A stretch of 43,709 bases of DNA from Bacilli bacterium (GCA_045650425.1 JAZRRD010000092.1:1-43709), one strand, 5' to 3'. Shown: positions 1,649-32,501, numbered from the stretch's first letter. The notes: generated by a model not told the origin, from the sequence alone. A program made the numbers and translations.

Positions 1649-2695
1649 TTATTTATTAATACTTCTTAATAATTTAATTCCTTCTGCATTTTCTGGATTA
1701 TCTTTTTCTATCAACGAAATATAAAATTGTATAGCTTTATTAATGCCTTCAGTTTTATATTGTATAGCATTACATTGACTTATTACCCCTTCTTCACTTA
1801 TACAATATTTGTATAAATCACTAAATTCTTTATAGGTTGTCATATTTTGTTGATTAGCAAATAAGATATATATTAATGGTTCTTCTAATATAAATCTAGT
1901 TTGCGTAGTACTATCATCAACATATTCTTGTAATATACTACAATTATTTTCTTTAATTATTTTATAGATAAAATTTAATAAAAAACTTTTTTTATCTTCA
2001 CTTAAATCATTATTCCCAAAAAATCCTGTTAATAATCTTAAATATAATAAAACATGATCTGTACCATTTTTTACCATTCTATAATTACATCTTTTATCAT
2101 AAATGATTTTATCAGATAAATAAGTTGCATGATAATCACATGGAATATGGTCAGCCCAAAACGGTTCATAAGACGCTTCTACAGTTCTTTTATTTGGATT
2201 AAAAAATCCATTAAAAACTATATCATTAAATATATCGTTAAAAGAATTATCCAAAATTCTTAGTGTTGAAAATTCAAAATAAATAGGGTCAGTATCTTCT
2301 TTTCTACTTTTTATTTCCCAATATAAATCGTATGATGAGAGATATTTATAAAATTCATAATATTTTGTATTTTGAAAATCTTTTCTTGTCCATTCATAAT
2401 CACATTTGTTATTTTTTAAATATTCTAATATATTAGACCATCTAGTATGTATTTCATTATTAATTTCAGAAAAATCATTAGTTATGTTAATATTAAACAA
2501 CTCTTTTGCAATTCTAATATTTTCATTGCAAAAATCAAGTGTAGCTTTATATTTGAGATCACTGGTATAATTAAATGGATCTCTTTCAAGCCATTCTTTT
2601 CTGTGTTTTAATCTAATTTTACACATTTGAATGTTATATCTTAATTTAATTAATATCATAAATAATAAATATTCTTCTTTTTCTGTATGTTGCAT
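1649..2695 (-). CDS. hypothetical protein (348 aa)
   Basis: Long ORF with RBS GAGG upstream and its own TTGAAA-16-TACAAT promoter with an extended TG in 2696-2974. No motif recognised. Confidence 0.7.
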   Translation of the reverse strand: MQHTEKEEYLLFMILIKLRYNIQMCKIRLKHRKEWLERDPFNYTSDLKYKATLDFCNENIRIAKELFNINITNDFSEINNEIHTRWSNILEYLKNNKCDYEWTRKDFQNTKYYEFYKYLSSYDLYWEIKSRKEDTDPIYFEFSTLRILDNSFNDIFNDIVFNGFFNPNKRTVEASYEPFWADHIPCDYHATYLSDKIIYDKRCNYRMVKNGTDHVLLYLRLLTGFFGNNDLSEDKKSFLLNFIYKIIKENNCSILQEYVDDSTTQTRFILEEPLIYILFANQQNMTTYKEFSDLYKYCISEEGVISQCNAIQYKTEGINKAIQFYISLIEKDNPENAEGIKLLRSINK

Positions 2696-2974
2696 AATTT
2701 ACCTCAAAACTATATGTTATTGTAACAAATTTTATAAAATAATCAATAAGAGATAGATTAAATAATACGCAATATTCCTTCAGCATCTCCCATTTGAATT
2801 TTTTTCATTAAATACTATTATTTCAAGTATGCCGCAAATTGTAGCACATTTATTTTGCATTTCAACATTTCTATAATTAACTTTTTTAATAATTGCTATA
2901 ACAATAAAGATTGTAAGAACAAACTATAAGAGTCATGAAAAATACAATTAATGGTTTGGATATATTATGTATTC

Positions 2975-3238
2975 TTATTTTCTTTTTTTTGAAGTCAACG
3001 ACACTCTTGAGTGTTCATCAAATCTGCTTCGACAACGTGAAAACGAATTTTGATATGGTTTGTGATATTCAAGATCCTGCATATCTTTAACCGTCAACAT
3101 TTCTGCGGTTGCACGACGAACCTCTAATCCTTTTTGCTGTTCAACTCTGGAAGAAGGTGTATCAACAGCAGGACGCTCTAAATCAACATGAAGATAATCA
3201 ATAACTTCTTTAATTTTGCTGTTTGCAATTTCATTCAT
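2975..3238 (-). CDS. small charged hypothetical protein (87 aa), compositionally atypical
   Basis: ORF-track frame 2975-3247. I prefer the ATG at 3238 because AGGTG lies 6 nt upstream. Local GC is clearly higher than the flanks. Basic C-terminal tail RCRSRFDEHSRVSLTSKKRK. Confidence 0.55.
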   Translation of the reverse strand: MNEIANSKIKEVIDYLHVDLERPAVDTPSSRVEQQKGLEVRRATAEMLTVKDMQDLEYHKPYQNSFSRCRSRFDEHSRVSLTSKKRK

Positions 3239-3292
3239 ATTCATCACCTAATTAAATAAATTATATCATTTTTATTGTTAATAACCAACAGA

Positions 3293-3404
3293 TTATGATA
3301 CAAACACTTCTAACTCATTATTATAATAGTTTCTTTCATTATTAAATAGTAAGTATTTGTCTAACAAATGAGTTACAAAAGACATGTTAAGTTCTATCTT
3401 CTAA
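3293..3404 (-). pseudogene. degraded 3' remnant of a ninth array paralog (P5-like)
   Basis: Nucleotide similarity to the 3' end of the 6177-7085 gene (about 6205-6330). It translates as MSFVTHLLDKYLLFNNERNYYNNELEVFVS* versus P5 TSFVTHLLGKYLLFNNERNYCNNELEVFGWKK. The upstream part is frame-broken by a ~20-nt deletion and a stop. Confidence 0.65.
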
Positions 3405-3420
3405 TCTTTGTTTTTTTGAG

Positions 3421-4308
3421 TCATTTTCCCCATCCTTTCTGAAGACCAAATACACATGCATAATCATCTGAATCTTTATAAAACCTTTGGGATTTTTTTA
3501 GACGCCTTGACAGAAATGGAGAATTTAATAAATTTCCACTTCCTGATTGATATAACACAAGCCCATTAGAGTTTAAGTTATTGTTATATATATCAACTAT
3601 TAGTTCTTTTGAATGCAAATTAACATTGTTTAAAAAAATCTTCTTTTTATAACATAGTATATTAGATAATTCAACTAAATCATATGTACCAAACTTTACT
3701 GGCAATTCAGTTATATTTGCTTGCGTAAAAGTTATTTTAGCATTTTCTAATCTTTTTTTTAAATATTTAAACGTTTCTTCAGAATTTAGATAAGCATTAT
3801 ATTCGCCACCTTCTGGAGATCTATATTCTTTAGCCCACATTAATATGCTAGCAAAATGCTTACCATAACTTTTTAATTCATATTTATATGTTTCCCAAAA
3901 CTTTTTATATACTTCATCCATGTTTTTAATTACTTCATCTTCCAAATCTTTAATTTCAGCGCTATTAGATGAAGTATATAAAGAACAAAATTGTTCAAAA
4001 TTTAAACACTCTATCGCTCTTTTTTTAAAACCTAAAGCATAATATTCGGTAAGGCGATTAACATCGAATGTATCAACGTTATCAATTCCTTGATATATTG
4101 CATTAAAAGCATGGTCTCCGCTTGATAAAACAGTCAATGCTGTGTGGTAGTTTGTAAAATCTATTTGTGAATAAATTTGGTTTATTTGTTCATTAGAAAG
4201 ATAATAGAAAGCAGCATACTCTTCAAAAGTATATGGTATGATACCCATATCAATAATTTCTTTTGCACGTCTTAAATCCTCATCCCTTTGTTCTTCTAAA
4301 CTTCTCAT
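3421..4308 (-). CDS. array paralog P8, DUF3419/BtaA-like putative SAM-binding protein
   Basis: 295 aa with RBS AGGAAGGGG. Motifs LTVLSSGDHAF, DTFDVNRLTEYYALGFKKRAIECL, KKFWE, ITFTQANITELP, TYDLVELSNIL, IYNNNL..NG. Confidence 0.8.
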   Translation of the reverse strand: MRSLEEQRDEDLRRAKEIIDMGIIPYTFEEYAAFYYLSNEQINQIYSQIDFTNYHTALTVLSSGDHAFNAIYQGIDNVDTFDVNRLTEYYALGFKKRAIECLNFEQFCSLYTSSNSAEIKDLEDEVIKNMDEVYKKFWETYKYELKSYGKHFASILMWAKEYRSPEGGEYNAYLNSEETFKYLKKRLENAKITFTQANITELPVKFGTYDLVELSNILCYKKKIFLNNVNLHSKELIVDIYNNNLNSNGLVLYQSGSGNLLNSPFLSRRLKKSQRFYKDSDDYACVFGLQKGWGK

Positions 4309-4366
4309 AAAGATGCCCCTTCCTAATTAAGTTTGTATTTTATAATAAAACATCAAAAAAAACAAC

Positions 4367-5257
4367 TTATTGTTGTTTTTTTAAGCTTCTTATAAGATCG
4401 TTATTATGAGCATATTCTTTTTTATTTGCATAATCAATATTATTAAAAATATCACCACATGCCCCAACTGTTCTAAAGTCATTACCCCAACAATAATCAA
4501 ATAGTAATTCACCATGTTTAGTTAAATTGTTATCATAAATTTGACGAAGTAAATCAGAAACCTTTTCTTTCTGAAGCCACCTTCTGTTCACACATACTCC
4601 TAGTATATTAGATAGTTCTACTAAATCGTACCTTCCAAAATCTTCAGGTATATTAAGTACATCGCAATGTTTAAAAGTTATATTTGCTTTTTCTAATCTT
4701 TTTTGCATTTTATGATAATTAACATCCGAACGCAAATAAATATTTTTTATATCTTTTTGTGTTATATCAGTGTCAGTTCTAAATAAACTAACAACAAAGC
4801 CAAATGAATATTTTTTAAAATACGCAATTAATGATTCAAAAAAATTACGATACTCCGGTTCCATATTTTTTATAACGTAGTTTAGCATTTCGATTTGTCT
4901 TCGTTCCATTTCACCAGAAAACAACTTCATAAATTCATTATAATTTAAGCATTGGATAGCTGTCTTTTTTAAACCTAAAGCATAATATTCAGTTAAGCGA
5001 TTCGAATCAAATGTATCAATGTCTTCTATACCCATGTAAATCAAATTAAAAGCATGATCTCCACTTGATAATACAGTTAAGGCGTTTTTCTTACAAGCTA
5101 AGTTCATTTGCAAAAACATATTAGCTAAATATTCGTTTGTAAAAGAATATATTTTAGAATATTCTTCAAAATCAATTCCTAAATAATAATCAGATTGTAA
5201 GTCATCATATAATTTAATTGTTTGTTCCAAATCTTTTTTTCTTTGTATTTCATTCAT
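4367..5257 (-). CDS. array paralog P7, DUF3419/BtaA-like putative SAM-binding protein
   Basis: ORF-track frame 4367-5344. Start moved to the ATG at 5257 (MNEIQRKKDLEQTIKLY), 10 nt after the P6 stop. The longer start lies inside P6. Same motif set (LTVLSSGDHAF, DTFDSNRLTEYYALGLKK). Confidence 0.8.
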   Translation of the reverse strand: MNEIQRKKDLEQTIKLYDDLQSDYYLGIDFEEYSKIYSFTNEYLANMFLQMNLACKKNALTVLSSGDHAFNLIYMGIEDIDTFDSNRLTEYYALGLKKTAIQCLNYNEFMKLFSGEMERRQIEMLNYVIKNMEPEYRNFFESLIAYFKKYSFGFVVSLFRTDTDITQKDIKNIYLRSDVNYHKMQKRLEKANITFKHCDVLNIPEDFGRYDLVELSNILGVCVNRRWLQKEKVSDLLRQIYDNNLTKHGELLFDYCWGNDFRTVGACGDIFNNIDYANKKEYAHNNDLIRSLKKQQ

Positions 5258-5267
5258 ATTATCATCT

Positions 5268-6164
5268 CTACTTTTTTCTACTTCTAGGCTTTTTCCAACC
5301 AATTGCCAAATCATATATTCTTGTATCTTCAACACAACATTCATCCATTAAACAACTTAAAAAACGAGAAAATAGATGTGTAAATAATATTTGTCCTCCA
5401 TCTTGAAGATTATTATTATAGATATTCATCGCCTTTTCAAGCGCTTCGTTAAACGGCTCTTGTTCAAACATTTCTTCGTAATAGTCAAAAATATTGGAAA
5501 GAAATATTGTATCGTATTTGCCAATATTGGGTGATATGTCTAAAATGTCCATTTGCCTAAAAGTTATTTTACAATTCAAAAGATTTTGTTGAAGCTTATG
5601 GTAATTTTTTTTATTATTCATATATATATTACTATGATTTAATTTAACCCATTTAAGTTCTGATTTTTGGGCTAACGAGAAAATAGTATTTGGTTTCTTT
5701 GGGTTTAATTCTTTAGATTTATATAAAAATTCTTGCCAAAACTTTTTGTATTCCTCTTCCATATTTTCAATAACATATTTTTCGAGTTCCGGATTATAAA
5801 AATAGTAAGGGTCTGAGTCTCCGTCATAATAATTAAAAAGCTTAATAAATTGTTCGTAACTTAAGCATTCTACTGCTCTTTTTTTAAATCCTATAGCATA
5901 ATATTCAGTTAATCTATTTATATCAAAGGTATCCATTTTAGTAATCCCTTTATATATTAAACTTAACATTTGGTCACCACTTGCTAATACCGATAATCCA
6001 GTGTCTCCAGACAGGCGTAAACGGCTCCATAAATCTTGTAAGTATTCGTTAGTTAAACTATAAAAAATATTGTATTCCTTAAAATCACTAGCTTCTTTAA
6101 TTTTTTTACCAATTAACTTTAATGCTTCATCTAAGTCTTTTCGTCTTTGATTTATATTTTTCAT
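5268..6164 (-). CDS. array paralog P6, DUF3419/BtaA-like putative SAM-binding protein
   Basis: 298 aa with RBS AGAAGGGG. Motifs LSVLASGDQM, DTFDINRLTEYYAIGFKKRAVECL, EEEYKKFWQEF, KYDTIFLSNIFDYY, IYNNNLQDGGQIL. Confidence 0.85.
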   Translation of the reverse strand: MKNINQRRKDLDEALKLIGKKIKEASDFKEYNIFYSLTNEYLQDLWSRLRLSGDTGLSVLASGDQMLSLIYKGITKMDTFDINRLTEYYAIGFKKRAVECLSYEQFIKLFNYYDGDSDPYYFYNPELEKYVIENMEEEYKKFWQEFLYKSKELNPKKPNTIFSLAQKSELKWVKLNHSNIYMNNKKNYHKLQQNLLNCKITFRQMDILDISPNIGKYDTIFLSNIFDYYEEMFEQEPFNEALEKAMNIYNNNLQDGGQILFTHLFSRFLSCLMDECCVEDTRIYDLAIGWKKPRSRKK

Positions 6165-6176
6165 AAGTCCCCTTCT

Positions 6177-7085
6177 TTATTTTGATGGTTTTCTTTCTTT
6201 TTTCCAACCGAACACTTCTAATTCATTATTACAATAGTTTCTTTCGTTATTAAATAGTAAATATTTGCCTAATAAATGAGTTACAAAAGATGTATCAAGT
6301 TGTGTCATAATCATTTCGCCATTATCTTCTAGGTTACATTTGTAAATTTCTTCAGCTAAATCACATGTCTTTAGATAGCCTTTAGTAGGAAACAATCTAT
6401 AATAATAATCAAATATGTTTGATAAAAAAATAACATCATACTTACCAAAAGTTGTTGGAAGATCTTTAACATCTGAAACTTTAAAGCTTATTTTAGCATT
6501 TAACAATTGTTTTTGTAATATTTTATAATTATTTTGTTCATTCATATAAATATTACATTTATCAAGTTTTAAATCATTAAAACCTACATCCACAGCAAAA
6601 TTGAAAACACTCGGTTCTTCACTTAACCCTGATTCTTTTAATCTATAAAAAAGTTCTTGCCAAAACCATCTGTATTCCTCCTCCATATTTTCAATTACAA
6701 AGTTTTCTAAATCCTGTTGATACCCCGTTAAAGAAAAATTAAATAACTTTCCATATTGATCATAATTTAAAACTTGAACAGCTCTTGTTTTAAATCCTAA
6801 TGCATAATACTCTGTCAACCTGTTTATATCAAAGGTGTCCATTTTAATAACACCACCATAAATTAAATCTAACATTTGATCTCCGCTTGCTAACACACAC
6901 AGCCCTTTATCTCCAGGCAAAGTAAATTTGTTAAAAAAATTATCTAAACACTCATTTGTCATTCCATAGACTACATTATATTCTTGAAATTTAGTAGGAT
7001 TTATATATCCCGCATCAATTCGCTGATATAATTTGATTGTTTCTTCTAAATCTTTTCTTCTTTGTTCACTAATTACTTTTTCCAT
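6177..7085 (-). CDS. array paralog P5, DUF3419/BtaA-like putative SAM-binding protein
   Basis: ORF-track frame 6177-7142. Start moved to the ATG at 7085 (MEKVISEQRRKDLEE, RBS AAGGGAAGAG), which overlaps the P4 stop by 13 nt exactly as at the P2/P3 junction. Confidence 0.8.
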   Translation of the reverse strand: MEKVISEQRRKDLEETIKLYQRIDAGYINPTKFQEYNVVYGMTNECLDNFFNKFTLPGDKGLCVLASGDQMLDLIYGGVIKMDTFDINRLTEYYALGFKTRAVQVLNYDQYGKLFNFSLTGYQQDLENFVIENMEEEYRWFWQELFYRLKESGLSEEPSVFNFAVDVGFNDLKLDKCNIYMNEQNNYKILQKQLLNAKISFKVSDVKDLPTTFGKYDVIFLSNIFDYYYRLFPTKGYLKTCDLAEEIYKCNLEDNGEMIMTQLDTSFVTHLLGKYLLFNNERNYCNNELEVFGWKKERKPSK

Positions 7086-7969
7086 AATACTCTTCCCTTT
7101 TGAAATCCTGCTGCACCTGGATATAATACTTTTTCTGTACAAGTTACTTTTCTATCAACTGAGTTTGACAATACTTCTTTTATAAACGTATGGTGAAAGA
7201 AAGTTAAAATAATTTCACCAGGATCTTTTAAGTTTGTATCATATATTGATTGAAATAAATCTAATCCAGCATTTACATTTTTTTCTAAATCATACTTTCT
7301 AAATATATCATCGTAATAATCTAAAATGTTAGAAAGATAAATTAAATCATATTTTCCACATTCTAACGGAAGTTGTGTAATATCGCGATAATTAAATGAT
7401 ATATTTGAAGCTTTTAGATTTTTTTTTAATTTTTTATAGTTTTTATCATTTATAAGATAATTACATCGCTTATCTATTTGCAGATCTGCTGCAGCATCTC
7501 CACACACAAAATCAAAAACACTAGCTTCTACTCCTTGTTGTTTCAAATTATAAAATAATTCTTGCCAAAATTTTTTATACTTCTCTTCAGCGCATGAAAT
7601 AATATATTTTTCTAAGTCATAGTTACGTTCGCTATATTTAAAATTAAACAATTCGTAAAAATCATCGTATTTTAAAACGTCAATAGCAGTTTTCTTAAAA
7701 CCGAGAGTGTAATATTCAGCAATTCTATTACAATCAAAGGTATCTATATTTTTTATTCCTTTTAAAATCAGTTCAAATATTTGATCCCCGCTCGCTAAAA
7801 CACCTAACACCTTTTCATTCCCCTTAAGATTAAAGAAATTCCAGACAGCTGCAATATTCTCATTTGTAAAAGAATACGCATAACTATATTCAGTATGTAA
7901 TTTGGCCGCAAATTGATAAATTTCCATTGTTTCTTTTATATCTTTTTCTATTTGTTCTGATTTTGTCAT
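7073..7969 (-). CDS. array paralog P4, DUF3419/BtaA-like putative SAM-binding protein
   Basis: 298 aa. RBS AAAAGGAGAAG lies inside the P3 end, with the ATG 2 nt after the P3 stop. Closest to P2 (MTKSEQIEKDI.. versus MTVSEQREKDI..; both end GRVLWKK). Confidence 0.85.
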   Translation of the reverse strand: MTKSEQIEKDIKETMEIYQFAAKLHTEYSYAYSFTNENIAAVWNFFNLKGNEKVLGVLASGDQIFELILKGIKNIDTFDCNRIAEYYTLGFKKTAIDVLKYDDFYELFNFKYSERNYDLEKYIISCAEEKYKKFWQELFYNLKQQGVEASVFDFVCGDAAADLQIDKRCNYLINDKNYKKLKKNLKASNISFNYRDITQLPLECGKYDLIYLSNILDYYDDIFRKYDLEKNVNAGLDLFQSIYDTNLKDPGEIILTFFHHTFIKEVLSNSVDRKVTCTEKVLYPGAAGFQKGRVLWKK

Positions 7970-7971
7970 GT

Positions 7972-8892
7972 TTACTTCTCCTTTTTAAGGGTATATCCCA
8001 TTGTTGACTCACGCCCCATTATATATTTGTGTTCTCTTAAAAATTTGTCTTCTAACATCACAGACATAAATCTATCCACAAGATCAATTAGAAGAATTTC
8101 GCCATTTATATTTAAATTTTCATTATAAATTTTTTTAAGTATATCTAAAGCTTTCTTTTTGTTTCCACAAAAGAATTCAGTATAATATTCCATTACATTA
8201 GACAAATATATTAAATCATATTTTTTATTAAAATTATTTGGAACATCTACAATTGATGATTGTTTAAATGTTATATTGGCTTTTGCTAATTTTTGTTGTA
8301 ATTCATTATATTTTTCTATGTCTTTCATATATGAATTAGGAATTCTACATATAGAACTTAATCTGTCAGCACGATTTGCAAAATGAAATACACTGGGATT
8401 AAAACCATGTTGTTTTAAATTATAAAACAATTCTTGCCAAAACCATTTATATTCATCTTCCATATTTTCAATAACATATTGTTCTATATCTAAATGTTGA
8501 CAGTTATGGGTTTTATCGTAATATTCTTTATAATATTCAAAAAGTTTATTGTAATCTTCAAAACTTAAACATTCGATAGCTCTCTTTTTAAATCCTAAGG
8601 CATAATATTCTGTTAATCTGTTTATATCAAATGTGTCTATATCTTTTAGACCTCTTTGCACCAAATGAAATACTTGATCTCCACTTGCTAAAATACTTAA
8701 TGCTTTGGTCTCTAGTGTAAGAGTTACAATTTTTAAAAATGTCTCAACTGATTCATTAGTTAAATGATAAAAGCTAGCATATTCTGTAAATTTTCCGGAT
8801 ATTTCAAACGATTTACTACAATATCCATCTAAATATAATTTAATTGCTGCTTCCAAGTCTTTTCTTCTTTGTTCACTAATTACTTTTTCCAT
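7972..8892 (-). CDS. array paralog P3, DUF3419/BtaA-like putative SAM-binding protein
   Basis: 306 aa starting MEKVISEQRRKDLEAAIKLY. Overlaps the P2 stop by 13 nt. Closest to P5. Confidence 0.85.
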   Translation of the reverse strand: MEKVISEQRRKDLEAAIKLYLDGYCSKSFEISGKFTEYASFYHLTNESVETFLKIVTLTLETKALSILASGDQVFHLVQRGLKDIDTFDINRLTEYYALGFKKRAIECLSFEDYNKLFEYYKEYYDKTHNCQHLDIEQYVIENMEDEYKWFWQELFYNLKQHGFNPSVFHFANRADRLSSICRIPNSYMKDIEKYNELQQKLAKANITFKQSSIVDVPNNFNKKYDLIYLSNVMEYYTEFFCGNKKKALDILKKIYNENLNINGEILLIDLVDRFMSVMLEDKFLREHKYIMGRESTMGYTLKKEK

Positions 8893-9797
8893 AATACTCT
8901 TCCTTTTTCAAGACCTAAAGCATCAGAATACCTTACCTTTTTAGTACAACTAATTTTTGTTGGAACAAATTTAGCAGCTCTTTTTCTGCTTAATATCTCA
9001 TCAACGAAAACACCCCTAAAACAAGTTAATAATATTTCACCTGGTTTTTCTAAATTTACATCATATATTTTTTGAAGCAATTCTAATGTGCTAGATAATG
9101 CATTGAGCTCTGGTTGTTCAGAATATATATCATTAAAATAATCCATGATATTAGAGATATAAATAAAATCATATTTACCATACTCTGTAGGAATATTTTT
9201 AATATCATTATATTTGAATGTTATATTTGATTCCTTTAGGTTTTTTTGAAGTTTTGTATAATTTTCATTAGTTTTTAGATAATTACATCTATTGTTTAAA
9301 AGCGCATCTTGAATGTGTTCCCCTCTTACAAAATCAAAGACACTTGCATTAATACCCTTTTGTTTTAAACTGTAAAATAATTCTTGCCAAAACTTTTTAT
9401 AATTTTCTGGAGCACATGAAATCACATAATCCTCCATCTCTGATTTTTTTTCGTTTCTTTTCTCATAATTAAATAAATCTAAGAATTGATAATAGTTCAA
9501 GGCTTCTATTGCTATTTTTTTAAAACCCAAAGTATAATATTCAGCAATTCTATTGCAATCAAACGTATCTGCATTTTTTATTCCATTTAAAATCATATTG
9601 AAAAGCTGATCTCCACTTGCTAAAACACTTAATAATTTTACACTATCATCAAACTTGAAAAAATTCCATACACTATCAATATCTTCGTTTGTAAAAGGAT
9701 AAGCATAACTATATTCAGTATGTAGTTTTACAACTTCATAAGAATACATATTTATTGCTTCTATTATATCTTTTTCTCTTTGCTCTGATACGGTCAT
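8880..9797 (-). CDS. array paralog P2, DUF3419/BtaA-like putative SAM-binding protein
   Basis: 305 aa with RBS AGAGGGTGA. The ATG is 4 nt after the P1 TGA stop. Same motif set. Confidence 0.85.
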   Translation of the reverse strand: MTVSEQREKDIIEAINMYSYEVVKLHTEYSYAYPFTNEDIDSVWNFFKFDDSVKLLSVLASGDQLFNMILNGIKNADTFDCNRIAEYYTLGFKKIAIEALNYYQFLDLFNYEKRNEKKSEMEDYVISCAPENYKKFWQELFYSLKQKGINASVFDFVRGEHIQDALLNNRCNYLKTNENYTKLQKNLKESNITFKYNDIKNIPTEYGKYDFIYISNIMDYFNDIYSEQPELNALSSTLELLQKIYDVNLEKPGEILLTCFRGVFVDEILSRKRAAKFVPTKISCTKKVRYSDALGLEKGRVLWKK

Positions 9798-9801
9798 TTA
9801 A

Positions 9802-10689
9802 TCACCCTCTTTTTTTTAAGACATAACAAAGGTGTTTTGCATTATTAAAGTTTTTCTTTATTCTTTCAGCATCTGGAACTGATTTATATATTTCTTCGTC
9901 AAAATAACTACATAAATCTGTAAATATTATTTGGCCATTTTTATATAGGTTATTATCATATATATTCGTTAAAAGTATTTTAGCAAATTCTTGTTCAAAA
10001 TAGTCTATTATGTTTGATAAATATATTAAATCATATGCAGGGAATTTTATTGGCAGTTCTACTATATCTGATTGCCAAAAATTAATAGATGTAGAAGGTA
10101 ATTTATTTTGAAGAGTTTTATAATTGTTTTCATTTTTCAAAAAGCTCGGTTTATTAAAATCTTTTTGTTTAACATCCAAAGCAAAGTGAAATACACTTGC
10201 TTCATATCCATACTCTTTTAAAATGCGCTTAATTTCTTTCCAAAACCATTTATATTCTTCATCCATATTTTCTACAACATAGTCTTCTATTTCAGATTTT
10301 ATATTATAGAACTTACATTCTAATCCATCATACGAAAAATTAAACAAATCTAGATATTCTTGATAATCCAAACATTCTATTGCTCTTTTTTTGAATCCTA
10401 TTGTGTAATATTCTAATAAGGCATTAATATCAAATGTATCTATATTGATAGCTCCTCTAAATATCATTTCAAATATATGATCTCCACCAGCTAATACACT
10501 TAAAATGTTTTTATCTTCATATTTTGTTCTAATATCAAATATATCTCGTATTGGTTCATTTGTAATGTAATAATATCTCGAATATTTTGAAAACTCAGGT
10601 TTTAATTCAACTCTACCTTGTTGATATAATTTTAAATATAAATCAATAGTTTTATCTAAATCTTCTTGTCGTTGCTCGGATATAACCAT
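9802..10689 (-). CDS. array paralog P1, DUF3419/BtaA-like putative SAM-binding protein (first gene of the operon)
   Basis: 295 aa with RBS AAAGGGGAG. Motifs LSVLAGGDHIF, DTFDINALLEYYTIGFKKRAIECL, EEYKWFWKE, AYDLIYLSNIIDYF. Confidence 0.85.
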   Translation of the reverse strand: MVISEQRQEDLDKTIDLYLKLYQQGRVELKPEFSKYSRYYYITNEPIRDIFDIRTKYEDKNILSVLAGGDHIFEMIFRGAINIDTFDINALLEYYTIGFKKRAIECLDYQEYLDLFNFSYDGLECKFYNIKSEIEDYVVENMDEEYKWFWKEIKRILKEYGYEASVFHFALDVKQKDFNKPSFLKNENNYKTLQNKLPSTSINFWQSDIVELPIKFPAYDLIYLSNIIDYFEQEFAKILLTNIYDNNLYKNGQIIFTDLCSYFDEEIYKSVPDAERIKKNFNNAKHLCYVLKKRG

Positions 10690-10717
10690 GCAAACTCCCC
10701 TTTCGTTTTGACTATTT

Positions 10718-10746
10718 ATTATAAATTACTTTTAATTAAATAACAA
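10718..10746 (-). promoter_or_regulatory. sigma-A-like promoter of the eight-paralog operon
   Basis: On the minus strand: TTGTTA (10746-10741), 17-nt spacer, TATAAT (10723-10718). It lies between the tRNA-Thr terminator and the P1 RBS. Confidence 0.45.
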
Positions 10747-10786
10747 GCTGTATTTAGGGCTCATCATTTTTCTTTTTATAAACATT

Positions 10787-10853
10787 AAAAAACTAACTAT
10801 CTCTAGTTAGCCTATATTACTTAAACTCTAAAAAATTGAGTTTCCTATCAACC
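10787..10853 (-). repeat. conserved tRNA 3'-trailer element, copy A (two hairpins; the second is a terminator)
   Basis: Read on the minus strand: GGTTGATAGGAAACTCaattttttaGAGTTTAAGTAATAtagGCTAACTAgagaTAGTTAGTTTTTT. About 85% identical to 40164-40231, which follows tRNA-Cys. Confidence 0.7.
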
Positions 10854-10929
10854 TGGTGCTGGAAATAAGAATCGAACTTATGACCTACGCGTTACGAGGG
10901 CGTTGCTCTACCAACTGAGCTATTCCAGC
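10854..10929 (-). tRNA. tRNA-Thr (anticodon CGU)
   Basis: Manual cloverleaf: acceptor GCTGGAA/TTCCAGC, D arm GCTC-AGTTGGTA-GAGC, anticodon loop CTCGTAA, T arm ATAAG-TTCGATT-CTTAT, encoded CCA. One C-C mismatch at 31-39. Confidence 0.88.
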
Positions 10930-10984
10930 AGACAATATAATTATATCTCTATTTTAAACTAAAAGTAAAGTTTTAATTCATTTT

Positions 10985-11013
10985 TTAACATATTAGCCTA
11001 AAAGTGCTATAAT
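10985..11013 (+). promoter_or_regulatory. sigma-A-like promoter upstream of murE
   Basis: TTAACA, 17-nt spacer, TATAAT with TGc immediately upstream (extended -10). RBS GGAG lies before the ATG at 11033. Confidence 0.4.
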
Positions 11014-11032
11014 ATCTATAGGAGTTGATTCT

Positions 11033-12397
11033 ATGATTATTTATGAAACAGATTCAAGAAAAGTAAAACCTGGTCAAATATTTATTGCTATCGATGGACA
11101 TACAGTTGATGGACATGACTTTATAGATAATGCAATCACTAATGGTGCTATCAAAGTAGTCGGAACTAAAGATATAGATTGCAGTGTGCCATACGAAAAA
11201 GTTATTGATTCTGAGAAGTATCTTACAGAACATTTAGTTAACGAATACAGTAAAGAACTTAACAATATTGATTTTATTGGAGTTACTGGAACAAATGGAA
11301 AAACTACTACATGTTATTTAACATACCAAATTTTAAAAGAACTTGGACATGAAGTAGCTTATATGGGAACAATTGGTTTCTATTATAAAGATGAAGAAAT
11401 TGTTTTAAATAATACCACCCCTGATATTCTTACATTTTATAACTTAGTTCTAAATGCTAAAAGTAAAGGGTGTAAAACTATTGTAATGGAAGTTAGTAGT
11501 CATGCCTTAGAACTAAATCGAATCGCAGGCATAAACTTTAAAGTCGCAGGATTTACAAACTTGACTCAAGATCATCTAGATTTTCATGAAACAATAGATA
11601 AATATTTTGAAGCGAAACTAAAAATACTAAATTATCTTGATAATGATGCCTACTTTATTACAAACAGTGACGATACATACGGTAAAAAAATTTTTGGCAA
11701 ATATAAAAATGTATTAAGTTATGGAGAAAATAATGCTAACTATCATATAAAAAATTTTAATATAACTCCAAGTAAAACAAAAATAGAATTTACTTATGAT
11801 AATAATTACTACGAAGTTACTACAAACTTAACTAGTGAATTTAATGTTTATAATTATATACTTTCTTTAAGCTTAATTAATAAATATGGAATTAGTATCG
11901 AAGACATAATTAAAGTTACAAAAAACATCAAAGCTCCAAAAGGAAGATGTGAAACTTATGAAGTTAATGATGCTTTCGCGGTAATTGATTATGCACATAC
12001 TCCAGATGCAGTTGAAAAAATAATTACAGCTTACACTAAACTTAAAAAAGGAAAATTATACACAATCGTAGGATGTGGCGGAGACAGAGACCCTATAAAA
12101 AGACCAATCATGGGTAAAATTGCAAGTGATTTAAGTGATTATTGTATATTTACTAGCGATAACCCTCGTACTGAAAATCCAGAAAATATATTAAATGATA
12201 TACTTTCAGGCGTAAAAAAAGATAACTATGAAGTTATCATTGATCGTAAAGAAGCAATTCACTCTGCTCTTTCAAGATTAAAGAAAAATGATATTCTTTT
12301 AATCCTAGGTAAAGGTCATGAAGATTATCAAATTATTGGTCATACTAAAATTCATTTAGATGATTCCGAAGAAGTCTTAAAATTTATTTCCCGCTAA
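11033..12397 (+). CDS. murE: UDP-N-acetylmuramoyl-L-alanyl-D-glutamate--2,6-diaminopimelate ligase
   Basis: Mur ligase P-loop GVTGTNGKTTT, DYAHTPDA, GCGGDRD and a DNPR motif (FTSDNPRTENP). DNPR is typical of meso-DAP-adding MurE. Confidence 0.9.
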   Translation: MIIYETDSRKVKPGQIFIAIDGHTVDGHDFIDNAITNGAIKVVGTKDIDCSVPYEKVIDSEKYLTEHLVNEYSKELNNIDFIGVTGTNGKTTTCYLTYQILKELGHEVAYMGTIGFYYKDEEIVLNNTTPDILTFYNLVLNAKSKGCKTIVMEVSSHALELNRIAGINFKVAGFTNLTQDHLDFHETIDKYFEAKLKILNYLDNDAYFITNSDDTYGKKIFGKYKNVLSYGENNANYHIKNFNITPSKTKIEFTYDNNYYEVTTNLTSEFNVYNYILSLSLINKYGISIEDIIKVTKNIKAPKGRCETYEVNDAFAVIDYAHTPDAVEKIITAYTKLKKGKLYTIVGCGGDRDPIKRPIMGKIASDLSDYCIFTSDNPRTENPENILNDILSGVKKDNYEVIIDRKEAIHSALSRLKKNDILLILGKGHEDYQIIGHTKIHLDDSEEVLKFISR

Positions 12398-13232
12398 TTT
12401 TCTCAAAAATCAAAACAAAAGATGCGCTTAATATTAAAAGAATAATACAAAGTATCCCTCTTATATCAAAAGAAAATCCAGGATATATAAATAATATTGA
12501 GCCTAATACAAAACCTAATATAGCACTATAAGTTTTATTATAGTGTTTTTTTAATAATAAATTCATAAATTTTATCAATAAATAAGAAGAACCGACAAAA
12601 CTAATAAAAAATGGTGTTAATTTTATCAATTCCATAAAAGATAAAGTTAATGGATTAGCAAGAATACCCAATAAATACTCATAAATACCTAAAAGCATTA
12701 ATAAAGCAGCCCCACTTATCCCTGGAATTATCTTTCCCGCTGAATAAAATAAACCTGCAATTAAAAGGTTTAAAACAGTTAAATTACTTGAATCAAATTT
12801 TAATAATTCTGTTTTTTCAACAACAAATAAACCAATAGAAAACAAAAGTGCTAAAAACATAAATTTAAAATCAACTTTTTTTTCACCTTGTTTTTTTATT
12901 TCATTAATTAATGCAGGTATTCCGCCTATTATTAAACCCATGAAAACATATTTAATAGCATATTCTCTTGTATTTAATAAATATATTAATACATTACTAA
13001 ACATAATAGAACCAATTAATACGCCAGCTAATACCACAAAAAGAAAGCCGGCATTTTTTAAAATATCTTTTCTAAAATTACTTATGCTATAAATAATTTT
13101 ATCATATATTCCTAATAACACGGCTAAAATACCACCACTAACACCAGGAATAATAAAACCAATACCTATTATTATTCCTGAGATTAAGTTTTTTAAAATA
13201 TTATTTTTTCTTCTTTCTCTCTTCTTCTTCAA
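12384..13232 (-). CDS. DUF368 family membrane protein (putative undecaprenyl-phosphate translocase type)
   Basis: Two PG(V/I)SGG motifs (IIPGVSGGILAVLLGIYD and IIPGISGAALLMLLGIYE) in a polytopic protein. The start is uncertain. The ORF-track ATG at 13307 overlaps the upstream gene by 107 nt. I prefer the in-frame TTG at 13232 (LKKKRERRKNN...) after GAAAGGTGG. Confidence 0.7.
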   Translation of the reverse strand: MKKKRERRKNNILKNLISGIIIGIGFIIPGVSGGILAVLLGIYDKIIYSISNFRKDILKNAGFLFVVLAGVLIGSIMFSNVLIYLLNTREYAIKYVFMGLIIGGIPALINEIKKQGEKKVDFKFMFLALLFSIGLFVVEKTELLKFDSSNLTVLNLLIAGLFYSAGKIIPGISGAALLMLLGIYEYLLGILANPLTLSFMELIKLTPFFISFVGSSYLLIKFMNLLLKKHYNKTYSAILGFVLGSILFIYPGFSFDIRGILCIILLILSASFVLIFEKISGK

Positions 13233-14925
13233 GTTTAGTAAAAGCCACCTTTCCAACTGCTGTTGTCGGTAAACTACTTCTAAATTCATACTCATATGGT
13301 AGTGCATACTTACTTACATTTTGTTCACATAATTTTTTTATTTCTTTTTCAATTTTTCCACTAACTTTTACACCTTCTCTTAAAACAATAAAAGCTTTAG
13401 CCACTTGATTTTTATAAGGATGATCAATTCCTATTACAGTACTTGTTAGTACATCAGGATGTGAATTTATAACATTTTCAATGTATGAAGGATAAATATT
13501 ATATCCAGAAGAAATAATAACTCTTTTTAATCTTTGTTTAAAAAAGATAAAGCCGTTTTCATCCATTGCTCCAATATCGCCAGTATGAAGCCAAATTCTT
13601 TTATCCTTGTGTTGCCTTAACGCTTGATATGTTTCTTCCGGATTATTAATATATTTCATCATTACTGTTGGTCCACTTATACATATTTCTCCATCAGTAT
13701 TGTATGGAACTTCATCATGAGTTCCAATTCTAACAATTTTATAAAATGTATCTGGAAAAGGTATCCCAATTGTTCCTTCTTTATATATATTTGAAGGTGT
13801 CAAACAAGTTGCAGCAGTAGCTTCAGTAAGTCCATATCCTTGTCTTACGCTTGCATTACAACCATATATCGCTAAAAAAGCATCAACTTTCTTTTTTAAT
13901 TCTGAAGACATTAAATCTCCACCAGATATAATACATTTTATGCATGAAAGTTCATTATCATTAAATTTATTTTTTATTAATGATTCAAATAAAGCTGGAA
14001 CTCCTACAATAAAATTAGGCTTATATCTTCTGATTAAATTAGCAAATTCCTTAAAACTAAACGCTGGAATTAAAACACATTTCATACCTAAATAAAGAGG
14101 TGTATGTATACAAACTCCTAATCCAAAGCCATGGAATATTGGCATTATAGATAAAACCGTCATCTTTGGATTAGCTTCTTTTACCATCAACTCGGTTTGC
14201 ATTACCAATGCATTAAAATTTAAATTAGAAAGCATTATTCCCTTAGGATTACCAGTTGTTCCTCCACTATATAAAATTACAGCAGCATCATGAGCTTTTC
14301 GATGAACATCATAATTACCCATATAATAACTAGAAGATCTAAGAAAAGTTTTCCATGTTACAACACTCTCATCTAGTGGAAGCTTAACCTTTCTTCCTTC
14401 TTTTAACCAATATAAAGAACTTTTCACTATTTTAAAATCTTCTGCAGCACTTGCTACAATAATCTTTTCTAATTTAGTATTATTTTTGATTCGATATATT
14501 TTTTCAAAAGCAATATCTATACATATTATTAATTTTGATTTGGCAGAATTAATATAAAATTCCATCTCATTTTCACTGGATAAAGGATGAATCATATTAG
14601 CTATTGCACCTATCATATTTACTGCATAAAATGAAATAATACCTTCAGGTGTATTTGGCATACATATTGTTACTTTATCATTTTTTTCTACACCATAACT
14701 TTTTAAAGCTCTAGCTACTACTTCAATTTTATTCATTAATTCTATATAAGAGCATTTATTACCAAAATACTCATATGCTGTATTTTCGGGATATTTTTCA
14801 ACTGATTTTCTTAACAAATCAACAATTGAAATATTAGGATACTTTAATGTTGATGGAACGTTTTGATAAAATTCCGCCCATGGACGTTCATTCTTTTTTC
14901 TCATTAATTTTTGTTTACTTTTCAT
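13201..14925 (-). CDS. AMP-dependent acyl-CoA synthetase/ligase (ANL family)
   Basis: Motifs YSGGTTGNPKG, GYGLTE and TGDIGAMDENGFIFFKQRLKRVI. Confidence 0.85.
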   Translation of the reverse strand: MKSKQKLMRKKNERPWAEFYQNVPSTLKYPNISIVDLLRKSVEKYPENTAYEYFGNKCSYIELMNKIEVVARALKSYGVEKNDKVTICMPNTPEGIISFYAVNMIGAIANMIHPLSSENEMEFYINSAKSKLIICIDIAFEKIYRIKNNTKLEKIIVASAAEDFKIVKSSLYWLKEGRKVKLPLDESVVTWKTFLRSSSYYMGNYDVHRKAHDAAVILYSGGTTGNPKGIMLSNLNFNALVMQTELMVKEANPKMTVLSIMPIFHGFGLGVCIHTPLYLGMKCVLIPAFSFKEFANLIRRYKPNFIVGVPALFESLIKNKFNDNELSCIKCIISGGDLMSSELKKKVDAFLAIYGCNASVRQGYGLTEATAATCLTPSNIYKEGTIGIPFPDTFYKIVRIGTHDEVPYNTDGEICISGPTVMMKYINNPEETYQALRQHKDKRIWLHTGDIGAMDENGFIFFKQRLKRVIISSGYNIYPSYIENVINSHPDVLTSTVIGIDHPYKNQVAKAFIVLREGVKVSGKIEKEIKKLCEQNVSKYALPYEYEFRSSLPTTAVGKVAFTKLEEEERKKKK

Positions 14926-15796
14926 TTATTATTTCACTCGCCTTATCATCAAGTAGTTCTGGATTATCAAAAATATATTGTAATAAATTTAATGATTTTG
15001 CGAAATATACTCCATCTGCAATTCTTTCATCTACATTTATACCAAAATCACAAATCTCTCTAATTTCCTTTTTACCATCACTATTAATTATCTGTTCTTT
15101 ATGAATTTCTCCAATTGTAGCAATAATTGAATTTGTTCCAAAATTTGTTAAATTATGATATATTGAACCACATTTTATACTACCTAAATTAGATAAAATA
15201 ACAGAACTATAATATATATTATCATTTATAAACACTGAAGGTAACCATCCATGTTTATCTAAAAATTTAACTATACCAATAATAGGAACTCTTATTAATT
15301 GTGGTAATTTACCTATTATATCAATAGCATCATTAGTATCCGATTTTTTATTATTTCTAATTTTTTCTACTCTTTTAGCTATATTTTTAGAAATGTCTAT
15401 AAAAGTTTCTGTAGGTTTTACATCCAATACACACAGTAATTCTGAAGAATGATCATCAAACTTAACTTTTGCCACAAAAGATAATTTAACATTATTTCTT
15501 TGATAATATTTACGATTAGCAACAAATCTATTCATCAATGGTTTATTATATAAAAGTTTTGCAATTGCCATAGAAAACGCATGAAAATAGGTAATATGTA
15601 TATCAGGATTTTCTTTCTTCTTTTTTTCTACAAATTTAATTAAATTCGTAACATCAAACTTTTGATTAATATAAACATCTGCATCACATCTATCAGGTTT
15701 AAAATCTGCTAAAATATAATGCATTCCATCCATACTAATTCTTTGACCATCTCTTCTATCACACAATCTTTTTTTTGCACTCATAATATCACTCAC
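14915..15796 (-). CDS. 2-oxoacid dehydrogenase E2 / CAT-fold acyltransferase-like protein, standalone catalytic domain
   Basis: C-terminal motif VDERIADG sits where E2 enzymes have DHRxxDG. No lipoyl domain. Overlaps the downstream ligase start by 11 nt. Confidence 0.65.
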   Translation of the reverse strand: MSDIMSAKKRLCDRRDGQRISMDGMHYILADFKPDRCDADVYINQKFDVTNLIKFVEKKKKENPDIHITYFHAFSMAIAKLLYNKPLMNRFVANRKYYQRNNVKLSFVAKVKFDDHSSELLCVLDVKPTETFIDISKNIAKRVEKIRNNKKSDTNDAIDIIGKLPQLIRVPIIGIVKFLDKHGWLPSVFINDNIYYSSVILSNLGSIKCGSIYHNLTNFGTNSIIATIGEIHKEQIINSDGKKEIREICDFGINVDERIADGVYFAKSLNLLQYIFDNPELLDDKASEIINEK

Positions 15797-15918
15797 TTAT
15801 CTTTGTTTAATTTTATCATATAATTAAAAGTATTGTCCAGTTTTATAGCATATTCAAACATTTGACAAAAATATAATTTCATTATAAAATATACACTCAA
15901 GAAAGGGAGTTTTAAAAA

Positions 15919-16959
15919 ATGAAAAAACTTATTTATATTTTTACAATCGCATTATTTATCATCTTACCATGCAATGTAAATGCTGCCTTAGAAGTAAATA
16001 CACCTTGTGACGATATAAAAACTGATGGAAAAAATCAATTTAAAACTTGCTATATTGATATTAAAGTAACAGAAGATACAGCACTATATAGCACAAGTGG
16101 TAAATTTACTATGATAAATACTAGTTTAAAAGGTAATATTGAATCCGGAGACAAAAGAATTAAAATTACAAATAATAATTTAGACAATTTAACATTTGTA
16201 TCAGAAACACCAATAAAAAATGAAACTGTTAGAATTGCTAAATTTACTATTTATTTAGCAACAAATGGAGAAAAATGTATAGTTCAATGGGAACCTAAAA
16301 TATATGGTACTAATTATTCATGTACAATTGAAAATGGTTATTATTATGACAAGAATGGTAACTCAGTAACAGAAACAGAATATAATAAACAATGTAACCC
16401 ACATTATTGTGAAATAATAGATGATACATATTTTGACAAAAGTGGTAATATTGTTGATAAAAATGAATACAGTAAACAATGTGAAAAGCATTACTGCGAA
16501 ATAATTGATAACACATATTTTGATAAAAATGGTAATGTCGTTGATAAAAATGAGTATAGCAAACAATGTGAAAAACACTCATGTGAAATAATTGATAATA
16601 CTTATTTTGATAAAAATGGTAATGTCGTTGATAAAAATGAATATAGCAAACAATGTGAAAAACACTCTTGCGAAATTGTAAATGGCGTATATTTTGGAAA
16701 AGATGGTAATATTATTACAGATAAAGAATATGATAAACAATGTAATAAACATTTTTGTAAAATAATTGATGGAACATATTTTGGTAAAAATGGAGAGATA
16801 ATTTCTAAAGCAGAATACAATGTTCAATGTCCTACTGATAATCCTCATACATCTGGAAATAGCATATTTGGATATGCATTAATAGCAACTCTAATTACTA
16901 CTTTTATATCAATAATTTTATGTATTAAACAAAATAATAAAAAAGTTTACAAAATATAG
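15919..16959 (+). CDS. secreted repeat protein with C-terminal cell-wall sorting signal (putative sortase B substrate)
   Basis: N-terminal signal peptide (MKKLIYIFTIALFIILPCNVNA), six 29-aa Cys-bracketed repeats, then NPHTSG, a hydrophobic segment and the basic tail KQNNKKVYKI. RBS AAGGGAG. Confidence 0.8.
   Translation: MKKLIYIFTIALFIILPCNVNAALEVNTPCDDIKTDGKNQFKTCYIDIKVTEDTALYSTSGKFTMINTSLKGNIESGDKRIKITNNNLDNLTFVSETPIKNETVRIAKFTIYLATNGEKCIVQWEPKIYGTNYSCTIENGYYYDKNGNSVTETEYNKQCNPHYCEIIDDTYFDKSGNIVDKNEYSKQCEKHYCEIIDNTYFDKNGNVVDKNEYSKQCEKHSCEIIDNTYFDKNGNVVDKNEYSKQCEKHSCEIVNGVYFGKDGNIITDKEYDKQCNKHFCKIIDGTYFGKNGEIISKAEYNVQCPTDNPHTSGNSIFGYALIATLITTFISIILCIKQNNKKVYKI
16321..16842 (+). repeat. six tandem 87-bp coding repeats
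   Basis: Consensus C(E/T)I(I/V)(D/N).(T/G)YF(D/G)K(N/D)GN.V.(D)K.EY.KQC.KH. (29 aa). Units 3 and 4 (16495-16581 and 16582-16668) are nearly identical at the DNA level. Confidence 0.85.
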
Positions 16960-16987
16960 TTGATTTTTTTAGACAATATGATATAAT
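16960..16987 (+). promoter_or_regulatory. possible promoter for tRNA-Gly
   Basis: TTGATT, 16-nt spacer, TATAAT. Overlaps the inverted repeat AGACAATA/TATTGTCT. Confidence 0.3.
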
Positions 16988-17002
16988 TAATATTGTCTGA
17001 AT

Positions 17003-17076
17003 GCAGGTGTAGTTTAATGGTAGAGCTTCAGCCTTCCAAGCTGATAACGTGGGTTCGATTCCCATCACCTGCTCCA
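17003..17076 (+). tRNA. tRNA-Gly (anticodon UCC)
   Basis: GCAGGTG acceptor, anticodon loop CTTCCAA, T arm TGGGT-TCGATTC-CCATC, encoded CCA. Close to the Bacillus-type tRNA-Gly(UCC) sequence as I recall it. Confidence 0.9.
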
Positions 17077-17085
17077 TTTGAAAAC

Positions 17086-17124
17086 AACTTACGAACTGTA
17101 AAGTTTCGTAAGTTTTTATTTTAT
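17086..17124 (+). terminator. Rho-independent terminator after tRNA-Gly
   Basis: 10-bp stem AACTTACGAA/TTCGTAAGTT followed by a T-rich tract. Confidence 0.7.
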
Positions 17125-17270
17125 ATAAAAAACTATGATTTTAACCTGGCCACAAAATATGGTTTTTCGATACAAAAAAGAATTTCACGCAGTACACTTA
17201 TTACTAAATTTACACATCAGAAAGTTATAAAATCCACTAATATATGACAATTAATCATTTTAAACGCCCT

Positions 17271-18152: not shown

Positions 18153-18190
18153 AAAAAAAACTCCTTTTTTAAACCTTAATATTTATTTAA

Positions 18191-18796: not shown

Positions 18797-18869
18797 TTTA
18801 TATCACCCTAATAAATTATATCATGAATGAAATAAAAAAATAATAATTTCCATTTTTTAATAAAAATTA

Positions 18870-19706: not shown

Positions 19707-19715
19707 TTCAATCAC

Positions 19716-25538: not shown

Positions 25539-25543
25539 GCTTC

Positions 25544-27154: not shown

Positions 27155-27218
27155 ATTAGTCTACCTCCTTATAACATTATACCAAAAAAAATATGATTAT
27201 ATCAATCATATCATTTTA

Positions 27219-27668: not shown

Positions 27669-27712
27669 AAAACCACTCCTATTGTAAATTATGTTTAATA
27701 TAGTTTTTTGTG

Positions 27713-29243: not shown

Positions 29244-29294
29244 AATACATCCCTCAAAAAAATTATAACATAAAGAAAATATAAAAAAAAGAAC

Positions 29295-29696: not shown

Positions 29697-29697
29697 T

Positions 29698-31050: not shown

Positions 31051-31098
31051 AACGACACACTCCTAGTCTATGAACTGAGTATAACATAAAAATGTTGA

Positions 31099-31680: not shown

Positions 31681-31723
31681 TATTACCACCATAATAATAA
31701 TATCAAATATCTTATATTATAGC

Positions 31724-31751
31724 AAATAAAAAAAGATGTTTTAAACATCTC
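31724..31751 (-). terminator. Rho-independent terminator after the 217-aa subunit gene
   Basis: Minus strand: AGATGTTT/AAACATCT stem followed by TTTTTTTATTT. Confidence 0.6.
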
Positions 31752-31762
31752 TTTAAACTATA

Positions 31763-32416: not shown

Positions 32417-32501
32417 TTTCTTTACTCCTCCTTCTATTATTGATATTACCAGAAATTACACTTTTGTGCAATATTATTTTGATAATTTTACAAAAGTTTT
32501 T

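Follow-up and report, generated by a model that had tools for sequence, protein, structure and literature searches.

Eight tandem paralogs in a Bacilli contig

Why would a bacterium keep eight divergent copies of the gene for one type of small protein side by side on a single strand? This question is raised by a 43,709-nt contig of a Bacilli bacterium (GCA_045650425.1 JAZRRD010000092.1:1-43709; here termed the window, meaning the whole stretch of DNA that was analyzed), in which the region 3293-10746 holds eight intact open reading frames (ORFs), P1 to P8, all on the minus strand and arranged head to tail. An initial annotation had described these genes as a single operon of old, diverged paralogs of a putative S-adenosylmethionine (SAM)-binding protein reminiscent of DUF3419/BtaA. 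ORF calls confirmed its gene models, with products of 295-306 aa each and a spacing of -13 to +58 nt (4, -13, 2, -13, 12, 10, and 58 nt from P1 to P8). Profile scans and structural modeling were found to support the view that the eight window proteins are compact (~300 aa) DUF3419-like SAM enzymes; all eight are predicted to be soluble and cytoplasmic.

Family assignment and predicted fold

The eight proteins were scanned with the Pfam DUF3419 model (PF11899; 385 positions, gathering cut-off 28.2 bits). Five of the eight copies scored above the cut-off, namely P1 (32.3 bits), P2 (49.0 bits), P3 (35.2 bits), P4 (43.7 bits), and P7 (38.4 bits), while P8 fell just below it at 28.1 bits. P5 and P6 gave no Pfam match, yet these two proteins are clear homologs of the others, with 43-48% identity within the group of P3, P5, and P6, where P5 shares 46-48% with P3 and P6. 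The DUF3419 call was thus upheld by the profile scan, with the match lying in the N-terminal third of the model only, and PF11899 was also the precomputed assignment of most of the 112 homologs retrieved from databases. The C-terminal halves of the proteins displayed below-cut-off matches to Methyltransf_11/25/31, CheR (Pfam E 0.004), and ovoA_Cterm (E down to 1e-4). Matches in the NCBIfam scan were all sub-threshold (ovoA_Cterm and BioC), and PDB sequence searches with profiles of 8, 107, and 75 sequences returned only CheR (5ftw, E 0.07 and 0.01), aligned to the C-terminal half.

P3 was modeled with AlphaFold on a 107-sequence alignment, and the resulting model was of high confidence (predicted local distance difference test, pLDDT, 92.9; predicted template-modeling score, pTM, 0.92). 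The modeled core is of class I (Rossmann-type) and seven-stranded, with a glycine-rich ASGDQ loop after strand 1 (residues 63-67) and the acidic DTFD motif closing strand 2 (84-89). A helical lid of ~110 residues (93-204) is inserted between strands 2 and 3 in the model, and is followed by strand 3 (206-211), strand 4 (225-229), strand 5 (260-269), and a hairpin of strands 6 and 7 (289-303). Comparison of this model with the PDB by Foldseek gave 164 matches at E<=0.001; among the 50 matches listed, all but the first two were SAM-dependent methyltransferases (OvoM, NNMT, TrmR, AviRa, and MnmM, to name some), with the OvoM/OvoA C-terminal domain and NNMT among the best (E ~1e-5, probability 1.00). 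The first two matches were both chains of 6ulo, an uncharacterized protein of Leptospira interrogans (E 3e-6, template-modeling (TM) score 0.45, 295 aligned columns) whose sequence has no detectable similarity to the family profile and for which no associated paper was found; because it has no known function, it adds no functional information. Thus, the Rossmann-type SAM-enzyme fold that had been proposed from motif order is now matched by a confident class I model, the listed PDB neighbors of which are nearly all SAM methyltransferases.

The motif skeleton that had been read by eye from the eight copies proved real, as a full-length alignment reproduced it in 40 invariant columns. These columns include G69-D70, D84-T-F-D87-x-N89, E93-Y-Y, G98-x-K100, Y219-D220, S225-N226, and G252, and the skeleton reads TNE, L.VL(A/S)(S/G)GD(Q/H), DTFD.N, EYY.(L/I)G(F/L)K, FW, YD....SN, and IY..NL...G. 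Over 107 homologs, E47, D72, F88, D89, and S231 were invariant, and G71-D72 and D89 were invariant or nearly so. The alignment showed every copy to retain the residues expected to bind SAM. The short Lys/Arg-rich C-terminal tails noted in most copies were likewise found to be a trait of the family, in that a net charge of at least +3 in the last 12 residues was detected in 42% of 263 homologs compared with 4.9% of internal 12-mers; such tails could serve in membrane or nucleic-acid contact. The isoelectric point (pI) was 5.0-6.9 for the window proteins, with a family median of 6.3.

Age of the paralogs and selection

Pairwise identity among the eight paralogs was 34-59%. The subfamilies that had been proposed by eye were recovered for P2 with P4 (59%) and for P3 with P5 and P6, whereas P7 and P8, at 36% identity, do not form a tight pair; on the tree these last two were placed in the same deep clade, apart from P1 to P6. 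A neighbor-joining tree of 75 copies was used to compare the window with the array of the goat metagenome-assembled genome (MAG) RGIG3081 (locus L010). One-to-one pairs were recovered for five of the window copies, with gene order largely kept: P1 with copy 9 (83% amino acid identity, ratio of nonsynonymous to synonymous divergence (dN/dS) 0.18), P2 with copy 16 (81%, 0.18), P3 with copy 17 (87%, 0.18), P6 with copy 18 (82%, 0.12), and P7 with copy 19 (86%, 0.12). P8 has an 85% ortholog, P0006, on a related metagenome contig. For the P2/P4 and P5/P6 paralog pairs, synonymous divergence (dS) was above 1. One-to-one orthologs across genomes, together with a paralog dS above 1, indicate that the paralogs are older than the split of these species, and the low dN/dS of the orthologs (0.12-0.18) indicates that individual copies have been kept by purifying selection. 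The suggestion of old diversification instead of recent amplification therefore holds, given the one-to-one orthologs at 81-87% identity in RGIG3081.

Birth and death of copies take place beside this selection, as seen in differences in copy number, truncated or split copies in relatives, and a remnant of P5 in the window. P4 and P5 appear to be window-side duplicates. The P2/P3 and P4/P5 pairs share an identical 13-nt overlap junction (GRVLWKK and the stop codon over MEKVISEQRR) and P2 and P4 are sisters, so P4-P5 looks like the duplicate of a two-gene unit of the P2-P3 type. The P5 remnant spans 91 nt on the minus strand (3303-3393), 28 nt 3′ of P8, and could encode MSFVTHLLDKYLLFNNERNYYNNELEVFVS followed by a stop codon. 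Its 89% nucleotide identity to the 3′ end of P5 (6211-6301) exceeds that of any intact pair (70% for P2/P4), and it is a scar that recombination or deletion has recently left where the array ends.

Paralog-specific sites and a candidate role

Sites that are conserved within but differ between 16 orthogroups from three genomes were identified to locate where the paralogs diverge. In P3 numbering, such paralog-specific sites clustered around TNE (residues 40-49), in a loop of the lid (171-190), behind strand 4 (235-249) and strand 5 (268-278), and in the hairpin of strands 6 and 7 (285-300). Residues 61-110, which comprise the SAM loop, strand 2, and the first helices of the lid, were by contrast nearly uniform between orthogroups. 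In canonical class I methyltransferases, the acceptor site is built from the loops that follow strands 4 and 5 and from elements of the N-terminus or the lid. The pattern of sites fits a common SAM chemistry with diversified acceptor pockets.

On balance we lean, by a little, toward the array encoding SAM-dependent transferases that are expressed together and act on different acceptors. All copies would catalyze the same SAM-dependent alkyl transfer, of either a methyl or a 3-amino-3-carboxypropyl group, and would take different acceptors through divergence of their acceptor-pocket loops. The genes would probably be transcribed together from a promoter downstream of a transfer RNA (tRNA) gene, tRNA-Thr, and the 13-nt overlaps suggest that translation may be coupled within P2-P3 and P4-P5. 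As to the nature of the acceptor, the leading guess, and a tentative one, is a lipid of the membrane or a lipid-linked head group, drawn by analogy with BtaA and from two phospholipid-enzyme neighbors in other clades and the basic tails. Reviews state that aminocarboxypropyl-transfer activity is not predictable from sequence (PMC11869996, PMC10491745), and the same applies to the choice between a methyl and a BtaA-type aminocarboxypropyl group in the window enzymes.

Distribution, copy number, and gene neighborhoods in relatives

All 112 database homologs were derived from metagenomes or MAGs. The few with named sources were from 'Bacilli bacterium' or 'Firmicutes bacterium', and were annotated as DUF3419 family, class I SAM-dependent methyltransferase, or hypothetical. 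When GTDB was examined with one genome per species, relatives were confined to MAGs of uncultured gut Bacilli/Bacillota (goat, sheep, rabbit, and chicken (Candidatus Caccenecus)), and an exhaustive HMMER search recovered 186 representatives of clusters at E<=1e-30, a number that rose to 1897 at E<=1e-10. Copy number and neighborhood were surveyed across related loci. A single copy was present in each of L014, L016, L018, and L023, in L025 (after a gyrA-like gene), and in L035 (beside pnp); two copies were found in L015/L024 (one of them split, after gltX) and in L026 (after relA-dtd). Larger arrays consisted of five copies in L008 (after mreC and before M23/M50 peptidases), seven in L007 (after two ATP-binding cassette (ABC) transporters and before a Zn-dependent phospholipase C), eight in the window (after tRNA-Thr), 17 in the goat MAG RGIG1752 (L011, between gap and pgk), and at least 20 in RGIG3081 (L010/L001), where the array extends past the stretch that was examined. 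The survey thus revealed a lineage-wide trait of 1 to at least 20 copies, and the window array is one example of how a compact DUF3419 subfamily has expanded in tandem throughout this lineage. Since single-copy genomes exist, the protein does not need its paralogs.

Close relatives (L011, L001, L004, and L032) carry an array of 17 to at least 20 genes in the glycolytic operon, exactly between gap and pgk, with pgk-tpi-spo0A following the array. In L011, the entire array (3384-20172) lies exactly between gap (2043-3044) and pgk (20215 onwards; region 2043-20880), and in a third relative the array likewise ends before pgk-tpi-spo0A. Neither gap nor pgk was found in the window, the array of which is flanked instead by tRNA-Thr/murE and by unrelated ORFs. 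The eight window copies belong to the family repertoire as a part that has been relocated or is separate. Split copies occur in relatives, as at L004:10918-11813 (83 + 215 aa) and L024:7822-8789 (57 + 262 aa, with the 57-aa ORF beside P0099), and these are either frameshifted pseudogenes or sequencing errors. In the 611-aa metagenome protein P0196, two family copies are naturally fused head to tail within a single ORF. This fusion could hint at interaction in the Rosetta-stone sense, or it could be an artefact of assembly or frameshift; its AlphaFold model had a pTM of 0.56 and a disordered linker (pLDDT <50), with an alignment that spanned the first half only.

Across the 12 neighborhoods examined, no non-family partner gene recurred, bar a phospholipase D (PLD) in one distant clade. 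A gene of the Zn-dependent phospholipase C family directly follows the L007 array (31.4 bits compared with a cut-off of 26.8), and a distant clade that is Gram-negative-like has, in three contigs, a cardiolipin-synthase-like PLD adjoining a family gene. In these three contigs the conserved block (L027:4949-7897, L029:4972-7873, and L031:4953-8829) consists of the PLD, a MerT-like membrane protein of 111 aa, one or two DUF3419-like genes, an unknown ~620-aa protein, and HU, with lpxD and fabZ nearby. The phospholipase C and PLD neighbors are weak hints toward lipid chemistry, in line with BtaA.

Comparison with known systems

To our knowledge, DUF3419 is a large family of which BtaA is the sole characterized member. 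SAM-dependent aminocarboxypropyl transferases are rare, and in the btaAB operon of Rhodobacter the companion N-methyltransferase BtaB is encoded alongside BtaA. The window copies resemble BtaA/DUF3419 in that (i) five of the eight belong to the same Pfam family by score, over a stretch at model positions ~9-120 that in these proteins holds the TNE, SGD(Q/H), D.N, and K motifs; (ii) SAM is their presumed co-substrate; and (iii) they are modeled with a class I fold that carries a large helical insertion. They differ in length (~300 aa compared with the 385-position model), in their hosts, which are anaerobic gut Bacilli, and in their occurrence in arrays of up to at least 20 paralogs, where BtaA is a single gene. 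No btaB-like or other methyltransferase gene besides the eight paralogs was detected among the window ORFs of at least 100 aa, nearly all of which were scanned, and none adjoins the arrays in L001, L004, L007, L008, and L024-L026.

The small-molecule class I N-methyltransferases OvoM and NNMT, though among the best structural matches of P3, and CheR, which gave only weak sequence matches to the family (Pfam E 0.004; PDB 5ftw, E 0.01), are set apart from the window proteins by TM-scores of 0.34-0.46, identities of 9-14%, and sequence scores far below the family cut-offs; these enzymes also have neither the DUF3419 N-terminal motifs nor the lid. A further point of comparison is provided by the MttB-superfamily methyltransferase paralogs of gut acetogens, in which one scaffold has been multiplied, presumably for different substrates. 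Those paralogs are mostly dispersed, have known partner proteins, and are unrelated to the DUF3419 family in fold and cofactor, whereas the window copies are strictly tandem and lack partner genes. A polymorphic-toxin immunity array was also considered and was rejected, as no toxin domain was found in the flanking ORFs and the members appear to be 300-aa enzymes with invariant motifs under purifying selection. The initial annotation knew of no system built from eight co-transcribed divergent copies of such an enzyme, and this still stands: in literature mentioning DUF3419 or tandem methyltransferase paralog arrays, no description of such arrays was found.

Weighing the transferase set against other explanations

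Several observations weigh against a set of transferases with different acceptors. The DUF3419 match is confined in every matching copy to positions ~9-120 of 385, and the TM-scores to solved methyltransferases are modest (0.34-0.46), the latter because the lid is not shared with those enzymes. The enzymatic role of the compact family members is a putative one, drawn from sequence and model. The variable sites were placed by secondary structure and canonical class I topology instead of three-dimensional distance, and they could equally be protein-protein interfaces. A single, co-transcribed operon is plausible from spacing and strand only. Finally, the neighborhoods are mostly housekeeping and are not conserved (gap/pgk, mreC, gltX, relA-dtd, gyrA-like, and pnp), and the three PLD neighbors are 77-82% identical to one another, so that the PLD linkage may be inherited synteny.

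If the variable sites were interfaces, adjacent paralogs could be the subunits of one SAM-dependent hetero-oligomeric machine. The translational coupling suggested by the 13-nt overlaps of P2-P3 and P4-P5, the largely conserved gene order between genomes, and the natural two-copy fusion P0196 (611 aa) are all in keeping with such a complex; however, copy numbers of 1, 2, 5, 7, 8, 17, and at least 20, single-copy genomes included, do not fit a fixed stoichiometry, every copy carries the full set of catalytic and SAM motifs, which is unusual for scaffold subunits, and the P0196 model displayed no confident inter-domain packing (pTM 0.56, with the alignment over the first half only). We therefore regard a hetero-oligomer as unlikely. 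That each paralog modifies a different RNA (tRNA or rRNA) or a different position in one is quite improbable. Several family loci do lie near translation genes (tRNA-Thr in the window, and gltX, dtd-hisS-aspS-gatCAB, and pnp-rpsO), the basic C-terminal tails are enriched, and TrmR, MnmM, and AviRa are among the structural matches. The proteins are nevertheless acidic overall (pI 5.0-6.9 in the window, family median 6.3), Pfam and NCBIfam scans of the paralogs detected no RNA-binding domain, and translation genes are common neighbors in small genomes, which renders the linkage unspecific; as many as 20 or more lineage-restricted RNA modifications would also lack precedent.

Tandem arrays that vary in copy number through birth and death are typical of conflict systems, and the split or truncated copies and the recombination scar would be in keeping with immunity-like, anti-phage, or decoy proteins that diversify in an arms race. 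This explanation is nonetheless very unlikely: the orthologs are under purifying selection (dN/dS 0.12-0.18), the catalytic motifs are invariant, and the arrays are found in housekeeping operons such as gap-pgk. Scans with the PADLOC-DB defense models gave nothing meaningful (P6 with mad2 was the only match below E 0.01, at E 1.4e-4 and 18.9 bits, and was partial; a weaker one of P2 with Csm3 had E 0.065), phage, plasmid, and IMG/VR collections contained no family homologs, and neither a toxin domain, by domain and PADLOC scans of the window flanking ORFs, nor an adjacent toxin or mobile-element gene was found. A decaying or selfish amplification with no function today is barely credible and is already largely refuted. 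To its credit are a few split or truncated copies in relatives and the 91-nt remnant after P8, but none of the eight window copies is disrupted, a clear ribosome-binding site precedes seven of them, orthologs are retained between genomes at low dN/dS, and 40 columns are invariant despite paralog identities of 34-59%.

Organization of the array and its surroundings

From the upstream end, the array consists of P1 (9802-10689, 295 aa), P2 (8880-9797, 305 aa), P3 (7972-8892, 306 aa), P4 (7073-7969, 298 aa), P5 (6177-7085, 302 aa), P6 (5268-6164, 298 aa), P7 (4367-5257, 296 aa), and P8 (3421-4308, 295 aa), the last intact copy. The stop codon of P2 overlaps the start of P3 by 13 nt. P5 is assigned to the homologous ATG at 7085, although its ORF reaches 7142. 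The start of P7 is ambiguous, with other ATGs upstream at 5314 and 5344 (the ORF reaches 5344), and 5257 is favored because the orthologs of P7 are 297 aa long. A clear GGAGG-like ribosome-binding site precedes all copies but P7, the site of which is weak.

The upstream boundary of the array is formed by tRNA-Thr(CGT) on the minus strand (10854-10929), beyond which lies the divergently transcribed murE. A hairpin with a T-run (10787-10810, minus strand) is located 3′ of the tRNA, in a 100-nt stretch that folds at -13.3 kcal/mol, and probably keeps transcription of the upstream tRNA separate from that of the array. The promoter that had been proposed ahead of P1 is present as a consensus match, TTGTTA-17-TATAAT (10718-10746, minus strand), 29 nt upstream of the start codon. 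Such matches are no commoner than in shuffled sequence, however: 73 promoter-like hexamer pairs were found compared with 64.6 expected, and in this AT-rich DNA (26% GC) the scan does not discriminate. Promoters inside the array are likewise possible, with promoter-like pairs no more frequent than by shuffling. The absence of a convincing internal terminator was borne out in that the sole terminator-like site in the array region is weak, with the qualification that this site lies inside P2. No riboswitch or other noncoding RNA was detected ahead of the arrays in the window and four related loci; only the three tRNA genes of the window were found.

Past the other end of the array, the window encodes two minus-strand ORFs that match nothing in Pfam or NCBIfam: one of 90 aa (2975-3247), which has an extended -10 element (TGATATAAT) of its own, and one of 348 aa (1649-2695), for which a weak AbiJ match (E 0.0012) was the only one. 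Counterparts of these two ORFs were not detected in the relative loci examined. Beyond murE, genes of a lipid or envelope flavor are found at 12384-15796 and 17271-18796, encoding a VCA0040-like undecaprenyl-phosphate translocase, an AMP-binding (acyl-activating) enzyme, a 2-oxoacid dehydrogenase-type acyltransferase, a radical SAM protein, and a PAP2 phosphatase; these genes are not conserved beside the arrays in relatives. Farther along the window, a sortase gene (24708-25538) stands near a run of large minus-strand ORFs (24708-37803), most of which have no Pfam match (450, 197, 217, 848, 390, and 190 aa) and one of which is a DUF5305 protein (34981-36027), and this region may be a cluster for surface proteins or a pilus-like structure. 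Just after tRNA-Cys (40090-40163), the plus strand encodes a large serine recombinase with Resolvase and Recombinase domains (40732-42606). The GC skew changes sign at ~40 kb, and the recombinase/tRNA-Cys region may be the edge of an integrated element.

Significance

Enzyme expansions this large are uncommon in bacteria and usually mark an important adaptation of one lineage, for instance in substrate breadth or in the chemistry of the envelope. It is surprising how far the present expansion has gone, how old its paralogs are, and that in some species it is placed inside the glycolytic operon. Starting from a set of transferases with different acceptors, a new type of pathway could be envisaged in uncultured gut Bacilli, in which many paralogous DUF3419 enzymes, working in series or in parallel, would add SAM-derived aminocarboxypropyl or methyl groups to lipids of the membrane, to lipid-linked precursors of the envelope, or to molecules scavenged from host or diet; we consider this pathway doubtful. 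If it were true, it would yield a family of new compounds, betaine-like or alkylated, DUF3419 would gain its first function outside betaine-lipid synthesis, and in some species such enzymes would be expressed from within a glycolytic operon. The expansion is found in uncultured Bacilli of herbivore and bird guts, and the eight copies with their orthologs form a ready panel for function assignment, through which lipid or metabolite chemistry new to the gut could come to light.

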